Of a stretch of 64,000 nt of DNA, positions 599 to 57,529 are shown in pieces. This DNA is from Alphaproteobacteria bacterium (GTDB taxonomy: Bacteria; Pseudomonadota; Alphaproteobacteria; Rs-D84). The notes under the pieces were generated by a model, which saw only the letters and a list, made by a program, of their open reading frames with translations, made no database searches and was not told the DNA's origin. How positions within the stretch are numbered: position 1 is the stretch's first letter; each line of letters starts with the position of its first letter. The translations under genes and the position numbers were made by a program. Where the stretch lies: assembly GCA_017546265.1 (NCBI GenBank), contig JAFYXG010000012.1, positions 146,359-210,358 on the forward strand, written 5' to 3'.

Positions 599-3089
599 TA
601 ATGTGTTTTGTGTCAGTAATCCTGCCAAAATGTCCGAGGCTTTGTGGAAAATAATCCAGGACAGTCGGGTTGATATTGCAGATATGCTGATATTTCTGCC
701 CAGCAGACGTGCTGTCCGTACTGTAGAAAAAATGATTGCCGATAAAATGGGGGGCGTGGCGATATTGCCAAAGTTGGTCGGACTGGGCGAAGGAGTGGAT
801 GAAGAAAACTTTGATGAAATCACAAAAGCGGATATTATTTCAAATACTGAACGTGTCGTGGCAATCGCACGGTTGTTGGCGGCAGATGCGGATGTGGGAA
901 CTGTGGCTAATGCGTTGCCTGTCGCCGCAGATTTAGTGCGTATGCAGGACTATTTGGAAAACGAAGGTGTGGACGCAACGCAAATAGATTGGGAATCGTT
1001 GGTTGATGAAAAGTATTCAGGGCATTTTCAAAAAAAAGCCAAGATTTTAGGTGTGCTGTCGTCTTTTATGCCAATGTATGCAAATGGACGAATTACATCA
1101 ACTGCTGCACGAAATCGTGATATTAGGACATGGAAAAATGTTTTGCACAAATATAAACTGGTAATCGTGTGTGGGTCAACTGCCAGTGTGCCTGCAACCG
1201 CAGATTTAATGGTTGAAATTGCAAAAATACCACATGGACGAATTATTCTGTCAGGAAAAATTTCAGGGCAGGTGCAGGACTTTGAATTAAACACAAATCC
1301 ATATAATGCCGAGTATAAATTTCTGAATCGATTAGGATTGTGTGCCGAAGATGTCTGTGTTATTGATGTGGGGCCGTCTGTTATGGACTTTATGAACATG
1401 GCGTTCTCTAATCAGGTTGAACCACAAAATATAGATACAAATTTATCAAACTGTCATTTGGTTGAATGTGGTCGTGAAGCAGTCGAGGCAAACGCAGTTG
1501 CTGAAATTGCAGAACGGGCAATCGCACAGAATAAATCCGTGTTGGTGATTACACCAGATGCCGCGGGAAATCAACGTATTGGGTCTGCATTAAATGCACG
1601 GGGAATTGTGGTTGATTCTTCTGGGGGGCTGTCTGGGGTGATGACGTCCGCAGGGCGGGCAATACTGAATATGTTCGATGCGTGGCGAGATACAGCCGAT
1701 AACCAATATGACGAATTGGCAGCAGCAACAGATGGTAATTTGTTCGATACTGTGCAAAATATGATTGAAAAATTTGCTGATAAGTTTATGCCGCAATTTT
1801 ATCCGACTGATAAACAATATGAACAAATGTGGTGGTCGCTGAAACAGGTTTCAGATGCGCTGGTTCAGGCAGATGTAAAACCAGATTTATTGGATGCACG
1901 TTCATTGGTTGAATATGCGTTCGCTGGAGTGTCTGTGCGTAATTTGGCGGTGGATAACCCCCAGGTGGTTGTGCTGGGGACTATTGAATCGCGTATGCAG
2001 ACGGCAGATGTGGTTATTCTGACCGGGTTAAATGATGGTATGTTCCCTGCCCAGGGGTATGAAAATGCATGGCTGCCCAGACGGTTGTGTGAAAAAATAG
2101 GGTTGCCTTCGCCCGATAGAAAGGTGGCTTTGCAATCATTGGATTTTATGAATCTGTCATGTGGTAATGAGGTTTATTGGCTGCGTTCTACCATAGCAGG
2201 TGGGGTTCAAACCACGGAATCGCGTTTCTTGTCGCGGGTGCTGGCACGCAAGGGGATATTCAAAAAAAATACAGATATTGTCCAGAATGTTGCAAAACGC
2301 GATGATGTTCCACGAAAACCGTTGGATTATTCTGTGCCAACTCCGCCAGCAGATTGGTCTGATGTTTATGTGACAGAACTGGAACATTTAATACATAATC
2401 CATATTCGTTCTATGCAAAACATATATTGCGATTAAATGTGCTGGATGATTATTGGACAGGGGTTGATGCACGACATTTTGGTATTTTGGTGCATGATGT
2501 GGTGGAACATGCAACCGATTTAAGACCTGATGCGTTGGTGGCGGAAATGGATAGACGGGCATTGGAAAAAATCGGCGTGGGCAGTGTTATGTTCCATTTC
2601 TGGCATAAACGGTTCTTGGAAATCGCACCCGTTATCGCAAATGAATTGACAGAAATTCAGAACTCGGTTCCAGAAATACAAGGGTATGTTAAAATTGGTG
2701 GACGTACAATTCGAGCCAAGGCTGATCGTGTTTGGGATGGTGGGGTGTTGGATATAAAAACTGGGGCTGCCCCAACAGAATCCCAGTTGGAAAAGGGAAA
2801 TATGCCGCAATTACCATTAGAGGCTTATATGCTGCAAAAAAATGGGTTTCCAATAGAATCCACAGAATTGTCTGTACGACCAATCATGAAGTTTTTACAA
2901 CTGAAAAATGGTGATGCACGTATTGTCCTTATTGATCAAGAAAAAACACAAAATTATATAAACGCCGCCGTGGCAAAGGTTGAAGAACTGGTCAATATTT
3001 ATTCTGTTGGTGGGGCAGGGTATGAATATCGTGACCAGTCCGAGCAAAAATATAAGGGGTATGACGATCTGGCCCGCGTCAAAGACTGA
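585..3089 (+). CDS. addB: AddB-type double-strand-break repair nuclease (PD-(D/E)XK family, no Fe-S cysteines), apparently without adjacent AddA
   Basis: 834 aa; C-terminal RecB-type nuclease motifs (GRTIRAKADRVWD, LDIKTG, QLPLEAYML); N-terminal degenerate UvrD-like region; overlaps engB stop. Confidence 0.6.
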   Translation: MVSNNNVFCVSNPAKMSEALWKIIQDSRVDIADMLIFLPSRRAVRTVEKMIADKMGGVAILPKLVGLGEGVDEENFDEITKADIISNTERVVAIARLLAADADVGTVANALPVAADLVRMQDYLENEGVDATQIDWESLVDEKYSGHFQKKAKILGVLSSFMPMYANGRITSTAARNRDIRTWKNVLHKYKLVIVCGSTASVPATADLMVEIAKIPHGRIILSGKISGQVQDFELNTNPYNAEYKFLNRLGLCAEDVCVIDVGPSVMDFMNMAFSNQVEPQNIDTNLSNCHLVECGREAVEANAVAEIAERAIAQNKSVLVITPDAAGNQRIGSALNARGIVVDSSGGLSGVMTSAGRAILNMFDAWRDTADNQYDELAAATDGNLFDTVQNMIEKFADKFMPQFYPTDKQYEQMWWSLKQVSDALVQADVKPDLLDARSLVEYAFAGVSVRNLAVDNPQVVVLGTIESRMQTADVVILTGLNDGMFPAQGYENAWLPRRLCEKIGLPSPDRKVALQSLDFMNLSCGNEVYWLRSTIAGGVQTTESRFLSRVLARKGIFKKNTDIVQNVAKRDDVPRKPLDYSVPTPPADWSDVYVTELEHLIHNPYSFYAKHILRLNVLDDYWTGVDARHFGILVHDVVEHATDLRPDALVAEMDRRALEKIGVGSVMFHFWHKRFLEIAPVIANELTEIQNSVPEIQGYVKIGGRTIRAKADRVWDGGVLDIKTGAAPTESQLEKGNMPQLPLEAYMLQKNGFPIESTELSVRPIMKFLQLKNGDARIVLIDQEKTQNYINAAVAKVEELVNIYSVGGAGYEYRDQSEQKYKGYDDLARVKD

Positions 3090-3111
3090 AAATAAATTAT
3101 AATAATTCATC

Positions 3112-3312
3112 TAAAAGCAAATCGGGCAACTCATGTAGCGTTTTGTACACTACGTTGCCCGATTTACTTTTATCTAAATCATTCTAATTTATTTTATGCA
3201 CCTGATGGGTGGTTGGTGTGTGTGTAACTCATGTAGCGTATTGTACACTACGTTGCCAGATTTACTTTTATCTAAATCATTCTAATTTATTTTATGCACA
3301 GGGTGGGGTGGG
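3112..3312. repeat. Two tandem copies of a REP-like palindromic element (12-bp inverted arms aaatcgggcaac/gttgcccgattt around the conserved loop tcatgtagcgttttgtacactacg; second copy has degenerate arms)
   Basis: Direct reading: units at ~3112-3225 and ~3225-3312 are near-identical; same core and 3' tail as the elements at 34.0 kb and 39.4 kb. Confidence 0.7.
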
Positions 3313-3342
3313 TAATAAAAAATCCCCCGTTTGGGGGATTCA
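3313..3342 (-). terminator. Rho-independent terminator of yebC (hairpin aatccccc-aaac-gggggatt followed by a T-run on the minus strand)
   Basis: Stem atccccc/gggggat at 3321-3340, A-run 3315-3320 on + (T-run on -). Confidence 0.65.
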
Positions 3343-3343
3343 A

Positions 3344-4060
3344 TTATGCGGCGGCGGTAAATACCTTTTGTACGTCATCGTTATCGTCCAGTGCATCTAC
3401 CAATTTTTCCAACTTGGCATAGGCTTCGTCATCCAGATCCATTGGCATGTTTGGTATCCATGTCAATTCAGCCTGTTCCGGTTCACCCAATTTGTCAGCC
3501 AAATATTTCTGAGCGGTAATAAAGTCTTCGGGTTTGGTTGTGATAATAAAACCTTCTTCGGATGTTTCCAGGTTGTCCGCATTCGCTTCCATAATAATTT
3601 CCATCATTTCATCTTCGGTTTTACCGATACTTGCCGGGTACATAATTTGACCCGCACGGGTGAACATAAATACAACAGAACCTTCTTCACCCATGTTGCC
3701 ACCATTTTTGCCAAAAATATTACGAATTTCTGGTACTGTGCGGCGAGGATTGTCGGTCAAAGCCTCGACAATAACGGGGACTGCCCCTGGGCCGTATCCT
3801 TCGTATCTGACTGCTTCGTAACTTTCCGTGTTGGCACCAGATGCTTTTTCAATCGCACGTTTGATATTGTCGTTCGGCATCGAGTTTTTACGAGCCGTTA
3901 AAATCGCCAATCTTAACCGGGGATTATTATCTGGATTTTTATCACCTAATTTTGCCGCCATGGTAATTTCACGTGCCAGTTTTGTAAATAAACCACTGCG
4001 TGCCGCGTCCGCTGCACCCTTTTTGTGTTGAATATTATGCCATTTACTGTGTCCACTCAT
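3344..4060 (-). CDS. yebC: YebC/PmpR family probable transcriptional regulator
   Basis: N-terminus MSGHSKWHNIQHKKGAADA..., 238 aa; characteristic YebC sequence. Confidence 0.9.
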   Translation of the reverse strand: MSGHSKWHNIQHKKGAADAARSGLFTKLAREITMAAKLGDKNPDNNPRLRLAILTARKNSMPNDNIKRAIEKASGANTESYEAVRYEGYGPGAVPVIVEALTDNPRRTVPEIRNIFGKNGGNMGEEGSVVFMFTRAGQIMYPASIGKTEDEMMEIIMEANADNLETSEEGFIITTKPEDFITAQKYLADKLGEPEQAELTWIPNMPMDLDDEAYAKLEKLVDALDDNDDVQKVFTAAA

Positions 4061-6024: not shown

Positions 6025-6053
6025 AAAAAATCCCCGTTTTGGGGATTTTTTGT
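6022..6053. terminator. Bidirectional intrinsic terminator (A8-atccccgttttggggat-T6) between mnmE(+) and secB(-)
   Basis: Perfect hairpin flanked by an A-run and a T-run. Confidence 0.7.
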
Positions 6054-11928: not shown

Positions 11929-12702
11929 ATGCCGGTCGTTTCGGTCGTTGTTCCAGTTTATAAGGTTGAAAAGTATTTGAAGCGTTGTTTGGATTGTTTG
12001 CTGAATCAGACGTTTGATGATTGGCAGGCGATTTGTATAGATGACGGCAGTCCAGATAAGTCGCCCGCAATACTGGATGAATATGCTGCACGGGATAATC
12101 GCTTTGTGGTTATTCATAAACAGAATGCTGGGGTGTCTGCCGCCAGAAATGATGGTATTAAATTGGCAACAGGAAAATTTATTCAATTCTTGGATGCTGA
12201 TGATTGGGTGGATTCTGGATATTTAGAGCAGATGGTCGCAATTGCAGAAAAGTATCAATCTGATATGGTGGTGTCTGGATTTGTCAGCGATAATAAATAT
12301 ACAAAAACTATTGTTTATCAAAAGGAACGTGTGGGGCGGACAATCTGGGAAAAGCTAAGACATTCGTTCGCATTGACAGACTCTTATGTGTGGCGATATC
12401 TGTTCCGTGCAGATTTTATTCGGAAAAATAATCTGGAATTTAATACGGGATTGATTGCCCAGGAAGATACTTTGTTTGTCTTGGATGCAATTGCCATAGC
12501 AAATATGGTGGTGACTGTGCCAGGAGTAAACTATCATTATATGTTTAATGAAAATTCAGCATTAAATTCAAGGGGGGCAGAACACCGAGCCAAGGTGAAA
12601 ATGCAATATCAAATTGGTAAAAAATACAGACGTGATTTTGCAAAAAAGTACGGGGTTATGGGACTGTGGAGATTTAGAAAAATATTAAATCTGTTCAGAT
12701 AA
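11929..12702 (+). CDS. Family 2 glycosyltransferase
   Basis: VVVPVYKVEKYLKRCLDSLLNQT...DDGSPD...FLDADD: classic GT2 N-terminal signature. Confidence 0.8.
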   Translation: MPVVSVVVPVYKVEKYLKRCLDCLLNQTFDDWQAICIDDGSPDKSPAILDEYAARDNRFVVIHKQNAGVSAARNDGIKLATGKFIQFLDADDWVDSGYLEQMVAIAEKYQSDMVVSGFVSDNKYTKTIVYQKERVGRTIWEKLRHSFALTDSYVWRYLFRADFIRKNNLEFNTGLIAQEDTLFVLDAIAIANMVVTVPGVNYHYMFNENSALNSRGAEHRAKVKMQYQIGKKYRRDFAKKYGVMGLWRFRKILNLFR

Positions 12703-12718: not shown

Positions 12719-13747
12719 ATGCCTGCAATTTCTGTGATTATTCCAATCTATAATGTTGAAAAATTCCTGAGAAGATGCTTGGAAAGTGTTCAAAATCAGA
12801 CGTTCCAAAACTGGGAGGCGATTTGTGTCAATGATGGTAGTCCAGATAACAGTGCACAGATAGTCAAGGAATTTGCCGACAAAGATAAACGATTTAAGCT
12901 GGTAAACAAGGAAAATGGTGGATTATCAGATGCCAGAAATGTCGGTATGCAGCACGCAACTGGAGAATATATTTTGTATCTGGATAGTGATGATTTTATT
13001 CACCCACAGACCATGGCGATAACTTATCATCTGGCAAAGCGAGACGGAACAGATATCGTGGCGTTTACATATGACAGAATATACAGACCACAGTTAATGG
13101 TGCGACATTTTCTGAAATTGGATACAGATAATGTTATCCCAAAACGTATAAATAAAAAATATAACCTGGATAAAATACCAACACTGATTACAGATGATGT
13201 TTATGCGTTCGCAACAGAACGTATGCTAAATGTCCCACGCAAGAAAAAGAAATGGATGATAAAACACTGTCAGGTGTGGAAACATCTTTATAAGAAATCA
13301 CTGATAGAAGATATTCCGTATATAAAGGGGATTTTGTTCGAGGACTTTCCATGGTGGAGCGAGGTTATGCTGCGTAATCCACGGGTTACGATTACTAATT
13401 TGCCATTGTATTTCTATGTGCCAAACTTTGGTGGAATTGTGTTAAGTGCTAAACAGTTAAAGATTATGAAAAGTTTGTGTGTGGGATTAAATTCTGCATA
13501 TAAGGTATATCAGGAAAATGCCACACCGTATCAAATGCAAATGTGGTCTGAAAATTTTCAGTGGTATTTTATAGAAAAAGCATTTAGTAAAATTAAATAT
13601 TTGGACGGCGATGATGATGTGGCAATCGCGTGTGAATGTTTCCGTGAACTGGAACGTAATGGGGTGCTGGACAGGCCGCCATATAAATGGGCTGCAAAAC
13701 TGCGAAATGATATTTGCTGTTTATTGCATCAGTGCAAGTGTGAATAA
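12719..13747 (+). CDS. Family 2 glycosyltransferase (second copy)
   Basis: VIIPIYNVEKFLRRCLESVQNQT...NDGSPD...YLDSDD. Confidence 0.8.
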   Translation: MPAISVIIPIYNVEKFLRRCLESVQNQTFQNWEAICVNDGSPDNSAQIVKEFADKDKRFKLVNKENGGLSDARNVGMQHATGEYILYLDSDDFIHPQTMAITYHLAKRDGTDIVAFTYDRIYRPQLMVRHFLKLDTDNVIPKRINKKYNLDKIPTLITDDVYAFATERMLNVPRKKKKWMIKHCQVWKHLYKKSLIEDIPYIKGILFEDFPWWSEVMLRNPRVTITNLPLYFYVPNFGGIVLSAKQLKIMKSLCVGLNSAYKVYQENATPYQMQMWSENFQWYFIEKAFSKIKYLDGDDDVAIACECFRELERNGVLDRPPYKWAAKLRNDICCLLHQCKCE

Positions 13748-18555: not shown

Positions 18556-19101
18556 ATGAAAAAAGAATATACAGAGGTAGAAGTTTATGCAGCAATCAAG
18601 TCTGGCTTTACAAATTTGAAAATTTTGGCCAAACAGGATTTGAAAAAACGCTGGAAGAAAATGGAAACTGCGGATAAGTATGATGCGGGGCGTGGCTTGG
18701 TTTATATGGGTGATGTTGCGATGCAGCCAGAAAAACACTTTTCGCGTGCACGGACACAAGATGCCTGGATTGACCGTGCCGAGGCTTTTGCGTTCCGTAA
18801 CAGTTTGGAAAGTGTCGAGTATGCATATTATATTGTCCCGGCACCTCAGCATATTGTTACTGATGCGACACGGGCCGCAATGCGGGGCGAATTATATGGT
18901 GAATATGCACGGTTCTGTGATAGTGTGCAGTCGTGGGAATATGACAGAACTTCGCCAAAGGGTGCGTACAGATGCCTGGCGGAAAAATCTGCGAACGAGA
19001 TTGTGCAGCAATCAAAAAAGTACCAAAAGCTGGTTGATGTTGAATTGGCAAATCCAGTTAAGAAATTTTTTATGGTTTGTTTGAAACAGAAAACAAAATA
19101 A
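18556..19101 (+). CDS. Hypothetical protein (no recognisable domain)
   Basis: ORF with RBS aagg and -10-like tataat upstream; bidirectional terminator downstream. Confidence 0.45.
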   Translation: MKKEYTEVEVYAAIKSGFTNLKILAKQDLKKRWKKMETADKYDAGRGLVYMGDVAMQPEKHFSRARTQDAWIDRAEAFAFRNSLESVEYAYYIVPAPQHIVTDATRAAMRGELYGEYARFCDSVQSWEYDRTSPKGAYRCLAEKSANEIVQQSKKYQKLVDVELANPVKKFFMVCLKQKTK

Positions 19102-19130
19102 AAAAACGCCCGTTTGGGCGTTTCTTTTTT
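19100..19130. terminator. Bidirectional terminator (aacgcccgtttgggcgtt + T-run)
   Basis: Hairpin between convergent genes. Confidence 0.65.
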
Positions 19131-31713: not shown

Positions 31714-34005
31714 ATGGCAGGAAAATCAAATTTTTTACCAAAAAGTATTGCAGAATCTTTGCGATGGCTGATGGGGCGTGTGTTTGGGGCCGTTGTTTGT
31801 GGGGTGGGCCTGTGGGCTGTGTCGGCTTTGTTGTTTTATGACCCAAAATTGGCGGGCTTTGGCGTGGCCAGTACGTTTGGCGAACAGTCGTTGATGGGCT
31901 ATCTGGTTGGTATGCTGAAATATGCAATTGGTTGGATTCCTGGATTCTTTGTTTTGTTGTGTATTGTGCGGTGGGGATTTTTAAAACTGATTGGTTTTAA
32001 TGCAGATGTGGCACCAGAGTATAATTTGCTGCGTGGATTTATTGCGGTGTGTTTGGGGGCGGTCGGATTTGGTGCAATTTCGGTTGGTTCTGCGTTCGGT
32101 GGTATGTTCGGTGCAATTGCAGTGGCGGATTTAGGGGTGGTATTCGGTGAGTTGGTATTGCTAGTTGGAATTGCGTGTTTGATGGGGTTCTTTGTAATGG
32201 CGGGAATGTTGTTACATATTAAATGGTCGCATGTGCGTGGGGCTATGCGGGTTTTTCTGCGTTGTTTGCGTTGGGTTGGGTCGGCATTTCATTTGGTGGG
32301 TGCACCTGCTGCGTGTCCTGTGCGGGCAAAGGCGGTTGATGCTGATGATAAGGCAGAGCAGGCGGTGGTACCGGCCGAGCCAGAAACAGAACCTGAAACG
32401 CAGAAAAAACGTGGCGGATTGCTGGGACGGCGAAAAAAACAGGTGGCGGCACCTGTGGCCGCGGTGGTGGCTAAGTCTGCAATGCCAAATGCAGCCCAGG
32501 CATATTCTGTTTACAGATTGCCAGATACCAGTTTGCTGGAATATTCCAAGGCGGCAAAATATTCCGTTACACCCGAGTTGATGCAAAATGCACGGGCAAT
32601 TGAAACGCACTTTGCGGAATATGGGGTGTTTGGCAAAGTGGTGGGAATTAAACCGGGGCCAGTTGTCACTTTGTATGAGTTCGAACCAGAACCAGGACAA
32701 CGTATCGCAGATATCAGTAAAACAGGAAAGGATATGACACGCGCCATGGCCGTGGAAAATTTCCGTATTGCTTTGATGCCTAAATCAAACTATTTGGGTG
32801 TGGAAATGGCAAATATTAAACGTCAGGTTGTGCGGTACCGTGGCCTGATGGAAGATGAAATGTTTGTCCAGTCTAAGTATAAAATACCGTTGGCATTGGG
32901 GGTGAATATTGGTGGACATCCTATGTACTTTGACCTGGCGAAAATGCCACATATGATGATTGCAGGACGTACAGGATCGGGTAAGTCTGTATTCGTGCAA
33001 TCTATTATCACATCCATAGTTTATCACTTTACCCCGGATAAATGTAAACTGATGATTATTGACCCCAAGGGGGTGGACTTTGGATTCTGGGATGATATTC
33101 CACATCTGATTACACCAATCGTTAAACTGGAACCTCAGCCGGCGATAAATGCGTTAAAGTGGGCCGTGCGTGAAATGGAAGAACGCTATAAAAGACTGGG
33201 GCAACTGAACGCACGTAATATCGAAAGTTATAATGAAATTATGGCACACAAACGTGACAGCGGGGAAAGATTAACCAAACAGGTGGCCGTTGGAACAGAC
33301 CCTGAAACGGGTGAACTGATGTTCGAAACCCAGGAAGTTGATATGTCTGATATGCCATACCTGGTTATAATTATTGACGAGGTGGCTGATCTGATGGCGG
33401 TGGCAAAAAAAGAAGTGGAACTGTGTGTGCAACGTATCGCACAAAAGGCACGTGCTGCGGGTATCCACCTGATTATGGCAACCCAGCGACCAGACGCAAC
33501 AATTATCACAGGTGTTATCAAGGCAAACTTTCCAACACGCGTATCGTTCCAGGCCGCCAGCCGTATCGACAGTATGACGTCCCTGGGGGCCGGTGGGGCA
33601 GAACAACTGTTGGCAATGGGGGATATGTTGTTCAGCGAAGGTGGACATGCCGCAGTGCGTATCCATGGTGCGTTTATCAGTGATGATGAATTGTCAAAAA
33701 TCGGGGATTTCCTGCGTGCACAGGGCGAACCAGAATATACCGAAGGTGTTACCGCAGGCGAAGACGAAGGCGGCGGTTCTGTGATTCCGGGGTTGCCCGG
33801 TGCAATTGGTGGCGGTGGTGCTAAAGATGACCTGTATGAACAGGCCAAAGAAATTGTCATTCGTGATAAAAAACCAACCATTTCATATATTCAACGCCGT
33901 TTGGGGGTCGGATATAACAAGGCCGCTGGATTCATTGAACGCATGGAACAAGACGGAATCCTGTCGGGACCTGATGCGAAAAATAAACGCCAAATCCTGA
34001 TTTAA
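31714..34005 (+). CDS. ftsK: DNA translocase FtsK
   Basis: N-terminal TMs, Pro/Ala-rich linker, AAA+ motor (GRTGSGKSV), C-terminal gamma wHTH; 763 aa. Confidence 0.9.
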   Translation: MAGKSNFLPKSIAESLRWLMGRVFGAVVCGVGLWAVSALLFYDPKLAGFGVASTFGEQSLMGYLVGMLKYAIGWIPGFFVLLCIVRWGFLKLIGFNADVAPEYNLLRGFIAVCLGAVGFGAISVGSAFGGMFGAIAVADLGVVFGELVLLVGIACLMGFFVMAGMLLHIKWSHVRGAMRVFLRCLRWVGSAFHLVGAPAACPVRAKAVDADDKAEQAVVPAEPETEPETQKKRGGLLGRRKKQVAAPVAAVVAKSAMPNAAQAYSVYRLPDTSLLEYSKAAKYSVTPELMQNARAIETHFAEYGVFGKVVGIKPGPVVTLYEFEPEPGQRIADISKTGKDMTRAMAVENFRIALMPKSNYLGVEMANIKRQVVRYRGLMEDEMFVQSKYKIPLALGVNIGGHPMYFDLAKMPHMMIAGRTGSGKSVFVQSIITSIVYHFTPDKCKLMIIDPKGVDFGFWDDIPHLITPIVKLEPQPAINALKWAVREMEERYKRLGQLNARNIESYNEIMAHKRDSGERLTKQVAVGTDPETGELMFETQEVDMSDMPYLVIIIDEVADLMAVAKKEVELCVQRIAQKARAAGIHLIMATQRPDATIITGVIKANFPTRVSFQAASRIDSMTSLGAGGAEQLLAMGDMLFSEGGHAAVRIHGAFISDDELSKIGDFLRAQGEPEYTEGVTAGEDEGGGSVIPGLPGAIGGGGAKDDLYEQAKEIVIRDKKPTISYIQRRLGVGYNKAAGFIERMEQDGILSGPDAKNKRQILI

Positions 34006-34007
34006 AT

Positions 34008-34300
34008 TAAATCTAATGGCACATCTACGGGCGGGGGCGACATCTTATGTAGCGTTATGTACACTACGATGTTGCCCCCATCCCGTATCTATACCATTAT
34101 CTTTTATTTTACGCATCTGATGGGCGGGGCGACATCTTATGTAGCGTTTGTACACTGCACTGGCGGTTTTATCTTGCATCTATACCATTATCTTTTATTT
34201 AACGCACCTGACGGGCAGGGGGGGCTTATGTAGCGTTTGTACACTGCGATGTCGCCCCCATCCCGTATCTGTGCCATTATCTTTTATTTTACGTTTTTGG
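34008..34300. repeat. Three tandem REP-like palindromic elements (core ttatgtagcgtttgtacactgcg; arms gggcgggggcgacatc / gatgttgcccccatccc)
   Basis: Direct reading: units at ~34008-34110, 34113-34205 and 34205-34297 share the core and 3' tail ccattatcttttatttt with the copies at 3.1 and 39.4 kb. Confidence 0.7.
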
Positions 34301-34390
34301 TATTTTACATGCTTTACGGGGTGGGGGGATAATGTTTTTTTACTTTTATATGCTTTGTTTTTGTGATAAAATTATACTAATAGAGAGAGT

Positions 34391-36388
34391 ATGAAGTTCT
34401 TTAAGCATATTTTTGCCGTGTTTATTTGTGCCATGCCTTTTATGGCGGGGGCTAATGTTGCAACAACTGCTGGGAATAATTTGACTGCATGGAACGGTAA
34501 TTCGGGGGCAACAAATAATAATAACTGGAATCAAATGATGAACAGTCGCACGATGGCGACACAAGATGCACCAACTGCAGATTTTGGAAACTGTAATTCA
34601 CTGATACTGCGTTGTGCACAACCAAAATGTTCTGGATGTACGACCATAGATATTGCTCGTCCAATTGTTTCGGGGTGCGTAAACAGTAATGCAACATGCA
34701 AAAAATACGGCAATGATTTAGTCGAATATATTTCTGCCCAGTTGGTGTCAAATGCCAATACCAAGGCACAACAGGCAGAACTGGCGGCACAGACCGCCGC
34801 AGCAAATGCCGCAGCCCAGCAAAGCAGTATGCAAATGCAACAAATGCAGCAGCAGATGGCACAGATGCAGGCCCAAATGCAACAGCAAAATGCACAACAA
34901 ATTGCACAAATGCAGGCCGCACTGGATGAACAAAAGGCATTAACCCAGGCCGCTATGCAAGAGGTTGCCGCACAACAGCAACAGGCCATTCAGCAGGTGC
35001 AAAGTGTATCAACCCCGTCTGGAAATGGTGCGTTGACCGATGCCCAGGTTGCCGCCGCCCAGGCCGGTGTGTCCGCAGATGTCTTGGCACGTGAACAAAT
35101 TGCAGGGCAGATTATGTCCAAGATAGAAAGTGCCGAGGTTGCGTTAAAAACACTGAATGCGACAATGCAAAATGCGTTTATCTATGCGGGGTGTGATTCA
35201 CGCGGAAATAACTGTTCTGGACCAAAGCGGGTCAAGGTGTTTAAGCAAAAGGCAATGGGATTCTTTGAACCATATGACGCAATCGTGGACGAAGCATACG
35301 AAGGATTGGAAATGGCACTGGCCGTGGGGGTGGATGTGTCTGATGTGATTATGATGTTAAGTGGTGCATGTAATCAGTGGGGAAAATTCCTGTGTACGGG
35401 CGAGGGCGATATACACAAGGTGGGGCATTATAATAATGATAATTGTCAGAATGGTCGCTCGGTCAAGGGGGGATATGTTAAAGGGGGAATGGAATGCTCG
35501 GACGGTATGGCGGTGTCACCCCAGGACGATACCCGTTGCACATTAACCAGTTTGATTGGTGGTGATGGTGATAATGATGCCGTTTTGCGTGAATGGTTGG
35601 ATGAAAATTACGAAGGGGACAGACTGGTTCGTGTTGGTTGTGCGACATCTGCGTTGGATTCTATTTCAATATTTGGTCGCAGAAACAGCAAACGGGATAA
35701 TGCATTGGGACTGGATATACTGGAACGTATTTTATTACAGGATTCGCCGGATTATATTGGTAATAACAGATATGTAAAAACAGGGACAGATACCTATACC
35801 GAACGTATGAAGTACTGTGCATTGACACCAAATGGATATCAGAAATTACTGAATGCGGTTAACAGTAAAAAGTTGCCCAAGGATATTTGTGTGGATAATA
35901 AAAAACTGACCAATGATTTTATGTATGGTGGTGCAATCGCGGCCAGTGCATTTGGTGGAACAGGGTTAGATCAGACGATTGTCTCTTCGGCATATGATGA
36001 ACGGTCGTGTAAAGCTTGGGGGAATAATGTCGCACCACAAGGTTGTGGAACGGAATGGGATGGAAAGAATGCACGTTGTGTTGTGACCGGGCCTTGTAAA
36101 TTTACAGGTAATGATATTTTGACGTTGACGCAAATTGAGATAGAACAAAGAGCGACTGTTAGAGAAAAACAGGAGGCATCTTTGAATAATGCTGCGAAAG
36201 CGATGATTGGAACAGTAGTTTGTGTTCATGATTGTGGCGGTGGTCGGCGGAACTCTGCTGCAAAAAGTCAGGACGAATGTTGTTTGTGTGGAACAAGTTC
36301 TTTTAATCCTGTGGTACAAAAATGTGTTGATGGCAAGTTGCAAAGTAATAAAATTCCAACTATTACACTGGGGAACTCAAAAAAATGA
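34391..36388 (+). CDS. Secreted cysteine-rich protein with a long (M/A/Q)-rich low-complexity tract; unknown function
   Basis: Signal peptide (cleavage after MAGA), 665 aa, ~40 Cys, no recognisable domain; tract AQQAELAAQTAAANAAAQQSSMQMQQMQQQMAQMQAQMQQQ... Confidence 0.55.
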   Translation: MKFFKHIFAVFICAMPFMAGANVATTAGNNLTAWNGNSGATNNNNWNQMMNSRTMATQDAPTADFGNCNSLILRCAQPKCSGCTTIDIARPIVSGCVNSNATCKKYGNDLVEYISAQLVSNANTKAQQAELAAQTAAANAAAQQSSMQMQQMQQQMAQMQAQMQQQNAQQIAQMQAALDEQKALTQAAMQEVAAQQQQAIQQVQSVSTPSGNGALTDAQVAAAQAGVSADVLAREQIAGQIMSKIESAEVALKTLNATMQNAFIYAGCDSRGNNCSGPKRVKVFKQKAMGFFEPYDAIVDEAYEGLEMALAVGVDVSDVIMMLSGACNQWGKFLCTGEGDIHKVGHYNNDNCQNGRSVKGGYVKGGMECSDGMAVSPQDDTRCTLTSLIGGDGDNDAVLREWLDENYEGDRLVRVGCATSALDSISIFGRRNSKRDNALGLDILERILLQDSPDYIGNNRYVKTGTDTYTERMKYCALTPNGYQKLLNAVNSKKLPKDICVDNKKLTNDFMYGGAIAASAFGGTGLDQTIVSSAYDERSCKAWGNNVAPQGCGTEWDGKNARCVVTGPCKFTGNDILTLTQIEIEQRATVREKQEASLNNAAKAMIGTVVCVHDCGGGRRNSAAKSQDECCLCGTSSFNPVVQKCVDGKLQSNKIPTITLGNSKK

Positions 36389-37177: not shown

Positions 37178-37273
37178 ATTGTAAAGGGCTTCATCCATGC
37201 GGGGCGTGGGGATTTTTATTCTTTTATATTCAGCTTTGTTGTGATATAATTTGGGCAAAAGGAGTTATGTATC

Positions 37274-39370: not shown

Positions 39371-39371
39371 A

Positions 39372-39478
39372 AAATAAAATCTAATGGCATATCTACGGGC
39401 GGGGCGGCATCTGATGTAGCGTTTGTACACTGCGATGCTGCCCCCATCCCGTATCTGTGCCATTATCTTTTAATTTTT
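39372..39478. repeat. Single REP-like palindromic element (same family as at 3.1 and 34.0 kb)
   Basis: aaatctaatggcatatctacgggcggggcggcatc-tgatgtagcgtttgtacactgcg-atgctgcccccatcccgtatctgtgccattatctttt. Confidence 0.7.
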
Positions 39479-39544
39479 TGCCAAGCAAGGGTGTTGTTTC
39501 CTTTTGTTTGACAAAAGAAAGTATTTGTGTTATATTTCTGTGCT

Positions 39545-41787: not shown

Positions 41788-41807
41788 GATTTTTACTTAA
41801 CTTTTAT

Positions 41808-42218
41808 TTGGTCTTTATTTGTGATATAATAATGTTATTAAATTATAAAGGTTTTGGCAAGTTGGTAAATAAAAATTCTGATTTTACGTTGGCTGTGGCA
41901 AATTTGGCCGCAGCCGCAATTTCGGCAAATCCAAAGTTGTCTATGGAAGAGGCTGTAAAAAATGCACGTGAAATTCTGCGGGGAACATCGCTGACGGCCC
42001 AGCAAATAGAAGATTCTGTACAATTGGATAAAATTCAATGTTTCGAAGATGGAACATGGCATGTGATGCTGCGGAGATATATAAAACGCAGATTTAACCT
42101 GACACCAGAACAATATCGGGATAAATGGGGACTGCCAAATGATTATCCCTTTGTGGCACCAGCATATGCAAAAAAACGTTCGAAAATTGCAAAAAAATCT
42201 GGATTGGGGCGGAAGTAA
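41808..42218 (+). CDS. mucR: Ros/MucR family transcriptional regulator (zinc-finger residues substituted)
   Basis: C-terminal TPEQYRDKWGLPNDYPFVAPAYAKKRSKIAKKSGLGRK is diagnostic of Ros/MucR; the Cys2His2 positions read C-D-R-R. Confidence 0.7.
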   Translation: MVFICDIIMLLNYKGFGKLVNKNSDFTLAVANLAAAAISANPKLSMEEAVKNAREILRGTSLTAQQIEDSVQLDKIQCFEDGTWHVMLRRYIKRRFNLTPEQYRDKWGLPNDYPFVAPAYAKKRSKIAKKSGLGRK

Positions 42219-46412: not shown

Positions 46413-46456
46413 TGCGATTTTAATTGTATCATATTTGTGATAAACTAGAAAGTACA

Positions 46457-50677: not shown

Positions 50678-51025
50678 ATGCCGTATGAACGTAATGTTGC
50701 AAAAGATATAAGCGATTGTGAATGGCCAAAGCCTGAGTTGCCGGCAGATTTATGTTGTGACGGTTGTGACACGCATTGCAAACTTTCTATGCAGTTAAAT
50801 GTAAGAGATGAAAAGTTTATGCCCGAAAGCGGTAAGCAGAACTTTTATGTTAAACCTGTAATATATGCAGGTGGTGTGGAATTGTATGGTTGTGGTTTGG
50901 CGGCTAGTAAGTCTGCAGAACTTCTTACTGCAGAAACGATGATTGAAATATGTAACGCAGATCTTTTGTATCAAGATGCGTTGGCATGGTGTCGTGCAAC
51001 CTGCAAGCATAGTAAGGTAAAATAA
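50678..51025 (+). CDS. Small cysteine-rich hypothetical protein (CCDGCDTHC cluster)
   Basis: 115 aa ORF with RBS gggagg; 9 Cys; no recognisable family. Confidence 0.4.
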   Translation: MPYERNVAKDISDCEWPKPELPADLCCDGCDTHCKLSMQLNVRDEKFMPESGKQNFYVKPVIYAGGVELYGCGLAASKSAELLTAETMIEICNADLLYQDALAWCRATCKHSKVK

Positions 51026-51026
51026 A

Positions 51027-51143
51027 GTGGAATAATAGACTGGATTGCTACGCTTCGCTCGCAATGACAAAAGTGATTAAGAATCCAAGAGGTTAGACAC
51101 AATTGTCATCGCGAGGGAGTGTAAACGACCGTGGCGATCCAGT
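51027..51143. repeat. Direct repeat copy 1 (~117 bp, internally hairpin-forming) flanking the GIY-YIG gene
   Basis: ggaataatagactggattgc...ctcgcaatgacaa-N33-ttgtcatcgcgag...ggcgatccagt; ~96% identical to 51466-51582. Confidence 0.8.
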
Positions 51144-51155
51144 AAAAAAATCAAA

Positions 51156-51464
51156 ATGAATGAACGAAAGTTTTATGTTTATATAATGTTTAATCGTAGG
51201 AATGGTACACTGTATACTGGCGTAACCAATGACATTGTTAAACGTGTTTGGGAACATAAGAATAAAATAAATCCAGATTCGTTTTCTGCGAAGTATAATT
51301 GTGATAAGTTGGGGTATTGGGAAGATTTTCAATATGTAAATGATGCGATTGAACGTGAAAAGCATATCAAGGCACAATCAAGAAATTATAAATTAGGTTT
51401 GATTGAAAGTATAAATCCAGATTGGTTGGATTTGAGTGTACAAGATATGTTTTGGATTAGGTAA
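51156..51464 (+). CDS. Small GIY-YIG nuclease family protein (COG2827 / UPF0213-like)
   Basis: FYVYIM...GTLYTGVTNDIVKRVWEHK...KYNCDKLGYWEDF...REKHIKAQSRNYKLGLIESINPDW matches the ~100-aa stand-alone GIY-YIG family. Confidence 0.8.
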   Translation: MNERKFYVYIMFNRRNGTLYTGVTNDIVKRVWEHKNKINPDSFSAKYNCDKLGYWEDFQYVNDAIEREKHIKAQSRNYKLGLIESINPDWLDLSVQDMFWIR

Positions 51465-51465
51465 A

Positions 51466-51582
51466 GCGGAATAATAGACTGGATTGCCATGCTTCGCTCG
51501 CAATGACAAAAGTGATTAAGAATCCAAGAGGTTAGACACAATTGTCATCGCGAGGGAGTGCAACGACCGTGGCGATCCAGTG
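51466..51582. repeat. Direct repeat copy 2 flanking the GIY-YIG gene
   Basis: Differs from copy 1 at ~5 positions (gctacgc/gccatgc; gtgtaaacg/gtgcaacg). Confidence 0.8.
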
Positions 51583-53714: not shown

Positions 53715-53775
53715 CTTTTATGCCAAAGACATTTTGTTTTTGGCGTTTTTTATGATATAATGTCCATAACAATGT

Positions 53776-54823: not shown

Positions 54824-54856
54824 TAAAAATCCCCCGTTTGGGGGATTCTTTTGTTC
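54824..54856. terminator. Bidirectional terminator (aatcccccgtttgggggatt, identical 20-mer to the one at 3321)
   Basis: Hairpin between tatA(+) and dksA(-). Confidence 0.7.
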
Positions 54857-57123: not shown

Positions 57124-57486
57124 ATGACATTTGATGACATAAAAAAATATTTGGCTGTATTGGATGGACCCGTTGAAAAACTGGAATTTGTTATGGATTT
57201 GGGAAACACATTGCAGGCAGTGCCCGCAAATGCAAAATGTCACGAGATTGCCGGATGTGCTTCGTTTGTGAAAATTTGTCAAAATGAAAACGGGTTTTAT
57301 GCAAATGCCGATTCGGCACTGGTGCGGGGAATTGTGGCAATATTTATCGCAATGGTTGATGGGAAAAACGTCCAGCAAATCAAAAAAATGAATTTGGCAG
57401 ATGAGTTTTATGCGTTGAATTTACAGTTAGGGGCGGGGCGAACCAATGGTGTGAATTCTATGATTAGATTTTTTGAAAATTTGTGA
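57124..57486 (+). CDS. sufE: Sulfur acceptor SufE/CsdE
   Basis: Conserved GCAS region (EIAGCASFV) with the active Cys; 120 aa. Confidence 0.8.
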   Translation: MTFDDIKKYLAVLDGPVEKLEFVMDLGNTLQAVPANAKCHEIAGCASFVKICQNENGFYANADSALVRGIVAIFIAMVDGKNVQQIKKMNLADEFYALNLQLGAGRTNGVNSMIRFFENL

Positions 57487-57529
57487 TAAAATGCCAACAA
57501 AGGCTTCTGTTGGGGGGGGGATATTGGGT

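Follow-up and report, generated by a model that had tools for sequence, protein, structure and literature searches.

The window analysed here is a 64-kb stretch of DNA from an alphaproteobacterial genome of the order Rs-D84, in which Enterousia, with genomes of 0.75-1.0 Mb, has been placed (PMC12306168). A palindromic repeat, called the Enterousia element below, lies at three places in it, each time at the end of a gene. Unit 1 is located directly 3' of a gene for an AddB-like nuclease (addB-like; stop codon TGA at 3087-3089), the left repeat of unit 3 begins with the stop codon of ftsK (TAA at 34003-34005), and unit 6 directly follows TAA 39368-39370, the end of an ORF of 264 aa without assigned function that precedes fabD. 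These stop codons overlap or touch the left repeats, and the first-pass annotation, which had placed all copies in intergenic space, has to be amended in this respect. The genes upstream of the element in the window (addB-like, ftsK and others) are syntenic housekeeping genes, and the gene after ftsK is also present in relatives that lack the element. Because the upstream genes are unrelated to each other, the copies are not duplicated gene 3' UTRs, an origin that the annotation had considered. Its remark that the copies bracket an island of secreted-protein genes carries no special meaning, as the arrays concerned are merely located behind a stop codon, in one case that of ftsK and in the other that of the ORF preceding fabD.

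Six copies of the core, with the window pattern ATGTAGCGT(N1-2)TGTACACT(A/G)CG, are found, all on the + strand (at 3133-3154, 3231-3252, 34047-34068, 34139-34159, 34228-34248 and 39414-39434), where shuffled window sequence gives an expectation of 0 copies by chance, and a covariance model built from relatives and run with filters off detects no seventh in the 64 kb. The earlier description of a six-unit repeat at three places is thus borne out, except that its unit length of 95-105 bp was too short, the 24-nt left inverted repeat having been omitted; the full unit is about 110 nt long (108-112 nt when intact). An intact unit consists, in this order, of a left repeat (AAAATAAATTATAATAATTCATCT or AAAATAAAATCTAATGGCATATCT), a left arm of 18-20 nt, TCA, the core, a right arm and a right repeat (ATCTAAATCATTCTAATTTATTTT or ATCTATACCATTATCTTTTATTTT), and the core of the family as a whole, taken from the aligned copies, reads TGTAGCGT(N)TGTACACTAC. 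The outer inverted repeat is AT-rich and 24 nt long, the inner stem is constant in length (18-20 nt), free in sequence and strict in pairing, and the apex, TCATGTAGCGTTTGTACACTAC, is invariant, asymmetric and 22 nt long. In addition, T(A/C)TAAT is conserved within the left repeat, ATCT is invariant at both feet of the inner stem, and GTAG and CTAC are invariant and located in the apex of the single hairpin of about 42 pairs into which the whole unit folds, with an A-tract and a T-tract flanking it. The "tail" that had been described as common to the units is indeed a shared sequence, but it is actually the right inverted repeat plus linker.

Table 1. Positions of the element units and neighbouring features in the window, with covariance model scores and DNA folding z-scores relative to shuffled sequences.
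Feature	Position	Strand	Score (bits)	Folding z	Parts and remarks
Intact unit 1	3089-3195	+	123	-7.1	left repeat 3089-3112 (AAAATAAATTATAATAATTCATCT), left arm 3113-3130, core 3131-3153, right arm 3154-3171, right repeat 3172-3195; DNA fold -23.1 kcal/mol
Linker of units 1 and 2	3196-3225	+			ATGCACCTGATGG plus G/T-rich stretch
Truncated unit 2	~3226-3293	+	32 (model positions 28-101)	+0.9	core 3229-3251, right arm 3252-3269, right repeat 3270-3293; no left repeat, no matching left arm
Orphan G-rich tail after unit 2	3294-3312	+			
Canonical intrinsic terminator of convergent yebC (3344-4060, -)	3318-3341	-			GAATCCCCCAAACGGGGGATTT then TTTATT
Intact unit 3	34003-34110	+	104	-6.1	left repeat 34003-34026, left arm 34027-34044, core 34045-34067, right arm 34068-34086, right repeat 34087-34110
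Chimeric unit 4	34111-34201	+	24	+0.3	linker ACGC, then CATCT-like start and unit-3-class left arm 34115-34136, core 34137-34158, right arm of other class 34159-34177, right repeat 34178-34201
Truncated unit 5	34202-34290	+	35	-1.0	linker, degenerate G-rich left arm 34206-34225, core 34226-34247, right arm 34248-34266, right repeat 34267-34290
Intact unit 6	39371-39476	+	93	-7.4	left repeat 39371-39394, left arm 39395-39411, core 39412-39433, right arm 39434-39452, right repeat 39453-39476
Tail 3' of unit 6	39480-39496	+			GCCAAGCAAGGGTGTTG

Only three of the six units in the window (1, 3 and 6) are intact and fold (Table 1), whereas the truncated or chimeric units 2, 4 and 5 (folding tested over ~3226-3293, 34115-34201 and 34206-34290) fold like shuffled sequences, the left repeat being missing or the arms unmatched. 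Unit 2 is 94% identical to unit 1 over 82 nt, and in unit 4 the left and right arms do not pair with each other. Therefore the view that every unit carries flanking inverted arms holds for the three intact units and fails for their three non-folding derivatives.

A scan of species-representative genomes with the core pattern gave at least 119 loci (cited here by L numbers), and among the loci listed there are at least 175 units in at least 58 genomes. The matches listed come nearly all from gut metagenome-assembled genomes labelled Candidatus Enterousia or Alphaproteobacteria, and the holders of the element are Candidatus Enterousia/Rs-D84 genomes. With at least 84 different right-arm 10-mers among these units, and with the core present well beyond the three loci of the window, the initial identification of a REP/MITE-like family of dispersed palindromes, in which the loop is conserved and the stems covary, stands. 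Core matches in Pseudoalteromonas, Chromobacterium, Alistipes and others, and the single match in viral contigs, lack arms and were set aside as chance or unrelated sites. In Pseudoalteromonas (L001, L010, L041, L042, L055) the match is an 18-mer, TGTAGCGTTTTGTACACT, that occurs once per genome in a conserved upstream region without a hairpin; it has the look of an operator and bears no relation to the Enterousia element family. A similarity search against plasmids gave AT-rich chance matches only, and Rfam gave no family at gathering score for the whole window and none at E <= 10 for 33950-34400.

Within the family, one arm or arm-plus-core subfamily may occupy up to 3-4 loci per genome, together with either type of outer repeat, and neighbouring units within an array are near-identical, in agreement with the tandem amplification proposed in the first-pass annotation. 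A variant apex, TCATGTATCATTTGTACACATC, is always accompanied by the arm class AAACGCGGTGCCGGAAAC (L033:250-680, L052 (-) 900-1400, L062:5650-6020), and several loci in two genomes have arrays in which units of this kind alternate with standard ones; apex and arm are therefore inherited together. A single flipped apex is seen among more than 170 units, at L092:5709-5822, where an element follows a yebC orthologue with its outer repeats facing the yebC stop codon and its apical core inverted. At L028 (~2711-2830, - strand), a site that carries the element in L013, L022 and L044, there is a hairpin whose left end and arms resemble those of the element (AAAAACAATTCGGGAATC...GATTCCCGTTTTT) and whose loop is unrelated and lacks the core; this hairpin could be a decayed copy or a precursor. 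Furthermore, Enterousia elements are often found at contig ends of metagenome-assembled genomes, and these repeats probably break the assemblies there.

Pairing of the arms was examined in 48 clean copies from other genomes. Paired cells make up 94.6%, a figure inflated by the choice of these copies for good pairing, compared with 78% in shuffles and 35-43% when partners are slid; the double changes, which are unaffected by this choice, occur at 23 of 42 pairs, with up to four pair types per position. The outer repeats also covary (AAAATAAATTA/TAATTTATTTT versus AAAATTAAATA/TATTTAATTTT). Compensatory pairing of the arms is thus confirmed, and structure-preserving substitutions are abundant once more copies are aligned. 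However, the further step taken in the earlier reading, from covariation to selection on a hairpin or cruciform, does not follow from covariation alone, because in palindromic DNA the same pattern also arises when hairpin-competent copies propagate and when one arm serves as the template for the other. The latter is illustrated by L144: its right outer arm, CCGTTATAAAATATG, corresponds to the native ftsK end in reverse complement, so that at least part of the palindrome was made by copying the flank inverted. Variable arms as captured stems of host terminators were considered and rejected, in that the arms do not vary in length and the same classes of arm are met again at unrelated loci. Wobble pairs on the + strand are few (16 G-U at one pair and 5 U-G in GUAG/CUGC), and an asymmetry of this kind as a sign of a + strand RNA is not borne out by folding energies, which give the + strand no advantage over the - strand. 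This lack of an advantage, and the confinement of all copies to the leading strand, disfavour the small structured RNA that had been listed among the possible identities of the unit.

All real copies lie on the leading (G-rich) strand. Among the matches listed, 100 of 101 arrays are on the G-rich strand and one is on the C-rich strand; the latter, the sole opposite-strand match in any locus (L091), is spurious and lies inside a gene, leaving real copies at 100 to 0. Counted by gene, the element follows 79 of 470 genes on the G-rich strand versus 0 of 225 on the C-rich strand, and genes on the other strand make up about 30% of the total (17/61 in the window, 225/695 in the loci). Several loci of one contig always show the same strand. 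In the window GC skew remains positive even in blocks of - strand genes, and the skew therefore reports the direction of replication.

The position relative to genes is also regular. In 103 of the 106 arrays among the matches listed, the core is preceded at a distance of 29-52 nt by the end of a co-oriented ORF, whose stop codon lies inside or immediately before the left repeat and is TAA in 97 cases; the three exceptions are a false match, an ORF below the length cut-off, and L092 with its inverted apex. The core itself was also considered as an ATG-TAG "start-stop" with the upstream AAGGGG as the ribosome-binding site, a reading that fails on a spacing of ~14-16 nt, which is too long, and on the absence of the motif from the first units. 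The linker contains a hammerhead-like CTGATG that other genomes do not conserve, and no IHF consensus was seen by eye in the core. Two other repeats in the window also touch ORF boundaries. A direct repeat of 102 nt with 96% identity (51023-51124 and 51462-51563), which contains GGATTGCTACGCTTCGCTCGCAATGACAAAAG, starts in both copies at the stops of small paralogous ORFs (50678-51025 and 51156-51464) and belongs to a family other than the Enterousia element; a direct repeat of 131 nt with 72% identity (11929-12059 and 12719-12849) lies at the starts of adjacent ORFs (11929-12702 and 12719-13747), which are probably tandem paralogues.

Where some species have a filled site, the orthologous site of close relatives may be empty, and these empty sites indicate what the element appears to replace. 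A canonical terminator directly follows the stop codon at 17 of 32 empty sites in a strict scan, and at about 22 of 27 real empties by eye, compared with a terminator within 100 nt after the array at 13 of 101 filled sites and a background of 5% of random windows. In four pairs of loci (L098/L019, L038/L084, L039/L016 and L072/L059) the element occupies the very position of the relative's terminator hairpin. Behind the arrays of the window come promoter-like sites, at 34304-34372 and, before fabD, at 39508-39536, with no terminator in between. Given this mutual exclusion with canonical terminators, the element probably acts as a terminator or 3' hairpin for the gene that it follows, and the slot right after the stop codon and the layout of A-tract, hairpin and T-tract are also those of an intrinsic terminator. 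However, there are also differences. The stem comprises ~45 bp rather than the 5-12 bp of a terminator, the sequence blocks are homologous at every site, and only leading-strand genes are followed. The T-tract does not adjoin the G+C-rich stem but is parted from it by an AU-rich imperfect helix, and terminator activity is therefore not assured; a simple terminator scan does not call the units. In addition, two copies lie within operons, between the stop codon and the next ribosome-binding site (L087, L108); the element is thus not confined to operon ends, and because a strong terminator inside an operon would be harmful, these copies count against a terminator function.

An ordinary terminator of this genome is exemplified by that of yebC, which lies outside the element (Table 1). 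Near-identical canonical bidirectional terminators, AAAAATCCCCCGTTTGGGGGATT or AAACGCCCGTTTGGGCGTTT, recur between unrelated convergent pairs at 3318-3340, 6025-6047, 54825-54846 and 19101-19123, and may reflect convergence or another small repeat family. An extended -10 sequence, TTTGTGATATAAT/TTATGATAAAAT, is common to promoter regions at 34344-34373, 37221-37250, 41802-41831, 46418-46447, 53733-53763 and 57469-57494.

Turnover of the element is seen behind ftsK. Among FtsK orthologues from metagenomes, 18 relatives have an empty end and several a filled one, interleaved by relatedness, and the filled ends represent at least five different subfamilies, all beginning right after TAA. In L144, compared with its closest relative L129 (85% identity), a three-unit array with a G/T-rich tail forms an exact insertion between TAA and the promoter region that follows, and is flanked on both sides by TTATAA. 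This 6-nt repeat is confined to the L144/L129 pair, and no target-site duplication is consistent among the filled/empty pairs; nor do the flanks of empty sites share a fixed short target, the ftsK sites being T-rich or terminator-bearing.

Overall, the absolute strand polarity, the copying between loci, the templated arms and the non-folding derivatives point to a palindrome that exists at the level of DNA and is handled as a single-stranded hairpin on the lagging-strand template. The explanation that we favour, at about even odds (a probability of roughly 0.5), is a lineage-specific, REPIN-like palindromic DNA repeat that is copied as a single-strand DNA hairpin into the stop-codon/terminator slot behind genes of the leading strand. 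The copying machinery would read the conserved apex together with the outer repeats, and the inner stem would need only to pair. Handling as a hairpin on the lagging-strand template would place every copy on the leading-strand sequence, and new copies would enter the slot between the stop codon and the next transcription unit, displace the intrinsic terminator there and very probably assume its function with their hairpin between A-tract and T-tract. Arrays may then enlarge as units duplicate in tandem and exchange sequence at the conserved core, giving rise to truncated and chimeric units that no longer fold; an exchange of this kind is suggested by the sequences of the chimeric units. Arm complementarity would be maintained partly by the spread of foldable copies and partly by templated copying of arm onto arm.

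Among the results that count against this explanation are the inconsistent target duplications and the failure to detect a transposase. Neither a Y1/HUH transposase nor a RAYT gene, which the first-pass annotation had proposed to look for, was found in about 0.9 Mb of element-centred DNA (the loci and the window) by tblastn with IS608 TnpA and E. coli RAYT (approximate query sequences) or by a scan of 2695 ORFs for HUH...Y, and no element-flanked gene (REPtron) was seen in the same ~0.9 Mb. Since many sites are conserved across species, a host function would fit as well. To our knowledge, no single-strand transposon shows targeting of stop codons. A more far-reaching version, which is tentative and in our estimate somewhat unlikely, describes the repeat as a self-propagating terminator cassette that would home, precise to the nucleotide, to the stop-codon/terminator slot of genes on the leading strand by an undescribed replication-coupled single-strand DNA mechanism, overwrite the terminator and extend its palindrome with a copy of the gene end. 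Host enzymes might be responsible for such a mechanism, in that no transposase was seen in these 0.75-1.0 Mb genomes (~0.9 Mb sampled).

It is unlikely, but worth weighing, that the element acts purely at the RNA level, as a terminator, mRNA-stabilising hairpin or ribosome staller in the 3' UTR with a protein-bound apex, and spreads by gene conversion only. Its co-orientation with the upstream gene whose stop it touches, its occurrence in place of terminators and the + strand wobble pairs that are tolerated would all be consistent with this, as would the finding, attributed to Liang et al. (2015) in PMC12306157, that ribosomes stall and expression drops where a REP lies within 15 nt of a stop codon. 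However, an RNA function gives no reason for the count of 79/470 leading-strand against 0/225 lagging-strand genes, nor for the orientation being fixed in tight convergent pairs, in which an element would meet a stop codon whichever way it pointed. The + strand folds no better than the - strand, Rfam has no match even at E <= 10, the truncated units fail to fold, and gene conversion could not fill a site that was previously empty. A host DNA site with replication polarity, such as an ssoA-like site of single-strand initiation or priming or another polar chromosome site bound at the apex, would account for the placement on the lagging-strand template in every case, for the conserved T(A/C)TAAT and for the constant inner stem of 18-20 nt. 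The apex motif TAGCGT is identical to the CS-6 consensus of ssoA (PMC4598088), and ssoA is likewise a long hairpin, active on one strand only and primed by RNA polymerase, with CS-6 in the loop, a conserved block at the base and variable stems (PMC4598088, PMC5703833). Nevertheless we regard this as quite improbable, as the similarity is limited to a 6-mer, CS-6 lies in a side hairpin in pT181, the fold is unlike that of pT181 palA, and the RSB box TTTATGCCGAGAAAACTT has no counterpart. ssoA is a hairpin of about 160 nt on the displaced strand of rolling-circle replicons, whereas the Enterousia element is chromosomal, located at gene ends and without similarity to any plasmid. About one array per 20 kb (three in 64 kb) is far too sparse for Okazaki priming, and stop-codon adjacency, presence or absence among close relatives and the non-folding units would be left unexplained.

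Two further explanations involve recombination or transposition. A site for site-specific recombination, of integron attC or Xer/dif type, either folded or duplex and with its crossover in the core, would suit an imperfect palindrome of attC-like size right after a co-oriented stop codon, and core exchange predicts both the chimeric units with arms of different classes (34115-34201 in the window; L029) and a core flipped relative to the repeats, as in L092. However, attC sites carry R''/R' boxes and occur in cassette arrays next to an integrase, whereas the alignment is free of R boxes (RYYYAAC/GTTRRRY), the upstream genes are syntenic core genes and not cassettes, and no integron-like gene arrays are present. 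The arms that a recombinase would bind are the variable part, and a non-exhaustive look near the elements showed no integrase, leaving this a very improbable account. A classical cut-and-paste MITE derived from a DDE-type insertion sequence with matching terminal inverted repeats would fit the ~24-nt terminal inverted repeats, the size of ~110 nt, the AT-rich ends and the 6-nt direct repeat at the junctions in one case (L144/L129). We give it a similarly slim chance, in that DDE MITEs have neither replication-strand polarity nor a fixed gene orientation, the other filled/empty pairs show no consistent target duplication, a parent insertion sequence with these ends was seen in no locus, and in some subfamilies the outer repeats vary with the site and can copy the gene end.

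The REPIN-like reading rests on similarities to known repeats, and there are differences. Like REPs and REPINs, in which conserved ends enclose a variable spacer of fixed length and compensatory changes are common, the element is a hairpin of ~100 nt (PMC3116915, PMC3333891); in addition, it has a high copy number, is extragenic and vertically persistent, forms tandem clusters with linkers and contains GTAG/CTAC. However, GTAG lies 5' of the hairpin foot in REPs (PMC3333891), whereas in the Enterousia element it lies in an extra invariant, asymmetric apex and the feet are ATCT. REPINs are randomly scattered in extragenic DNA, whereas the arrays studied here are tied to stop codons (103/106) and are absolute in their strand polarity. 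With GTAG misplaced, the distribution non-random and no RAYT in ~0.9 Mb, membership in the REP/RAYT family is not established. Elements of the IS200/IS605 family act on the lagging-strand template, and a similar handling of single-strand hairpins there has been proposed for REP/BIME (PMC3333891, PMC5027513). The Enterousia element shares with IS200/IS605 and their miniature derivatives, the PATEs ("peel and paste"), the orientation bias, the lack of a classical target duplication and, in the reading favoured here, the use of single-strand DNA hairpins on this template (PMC5027513, PMC3333891). IS200/IS605 elements have two subterminal hairpins and a target of 4-5 nt, in contrast to the one long hairpin found here, in which ATCT...ATCT at the inner-stem feet is the sole direct feature and for which no TnpA was detected (~0.9 Mb, approximate query sequence).

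Two further groups of repeats are comparable in size. Correia elements (CREE) of Neisseria and ERIC- or RUP-type MITEs are palindromic repeats of 100-155 nt with inverted ends, are co-transcribed with their neighbours and have been reported as terminators and RNase III targets. They have no sequence similarity to the Enterousia element, and Correia elements differ in their TA duplication, their IHF site and their occurrence in both orientations, none of which was seen here. Rickettsia palindromic elements (RPE), of 100-150 nt and without a known transposase, are also found in reduced alphaproteobacterial genomes; unlike the Enterousia element, which is unrelated in sequence and lies at or just past the stop codon, they reside in frame within genes and in RNA genes. 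The family is a new variety of the REP/REPIN/MITE kind already known, and no new kind of system. What is unusual in it is the abutment on the stop codon with replacement of the terminator, together with the absolute leading-strand polarity.

Finally, it should be noted that strong compensatory covariation in a repeated hairpin is no evidence of a structured RNA. REP-like repeats are common, and their maintenance and use by the host are still debated. The present family has been retained in dozens of species whose genomes are very small, and is tied there to the replication strand and to the exact end of the gene. If confirmed, it would provide a test case for a selfish hairpin becoming part of gene-end architecture, and possibly a view of how repeats move without a dedicated transposase.
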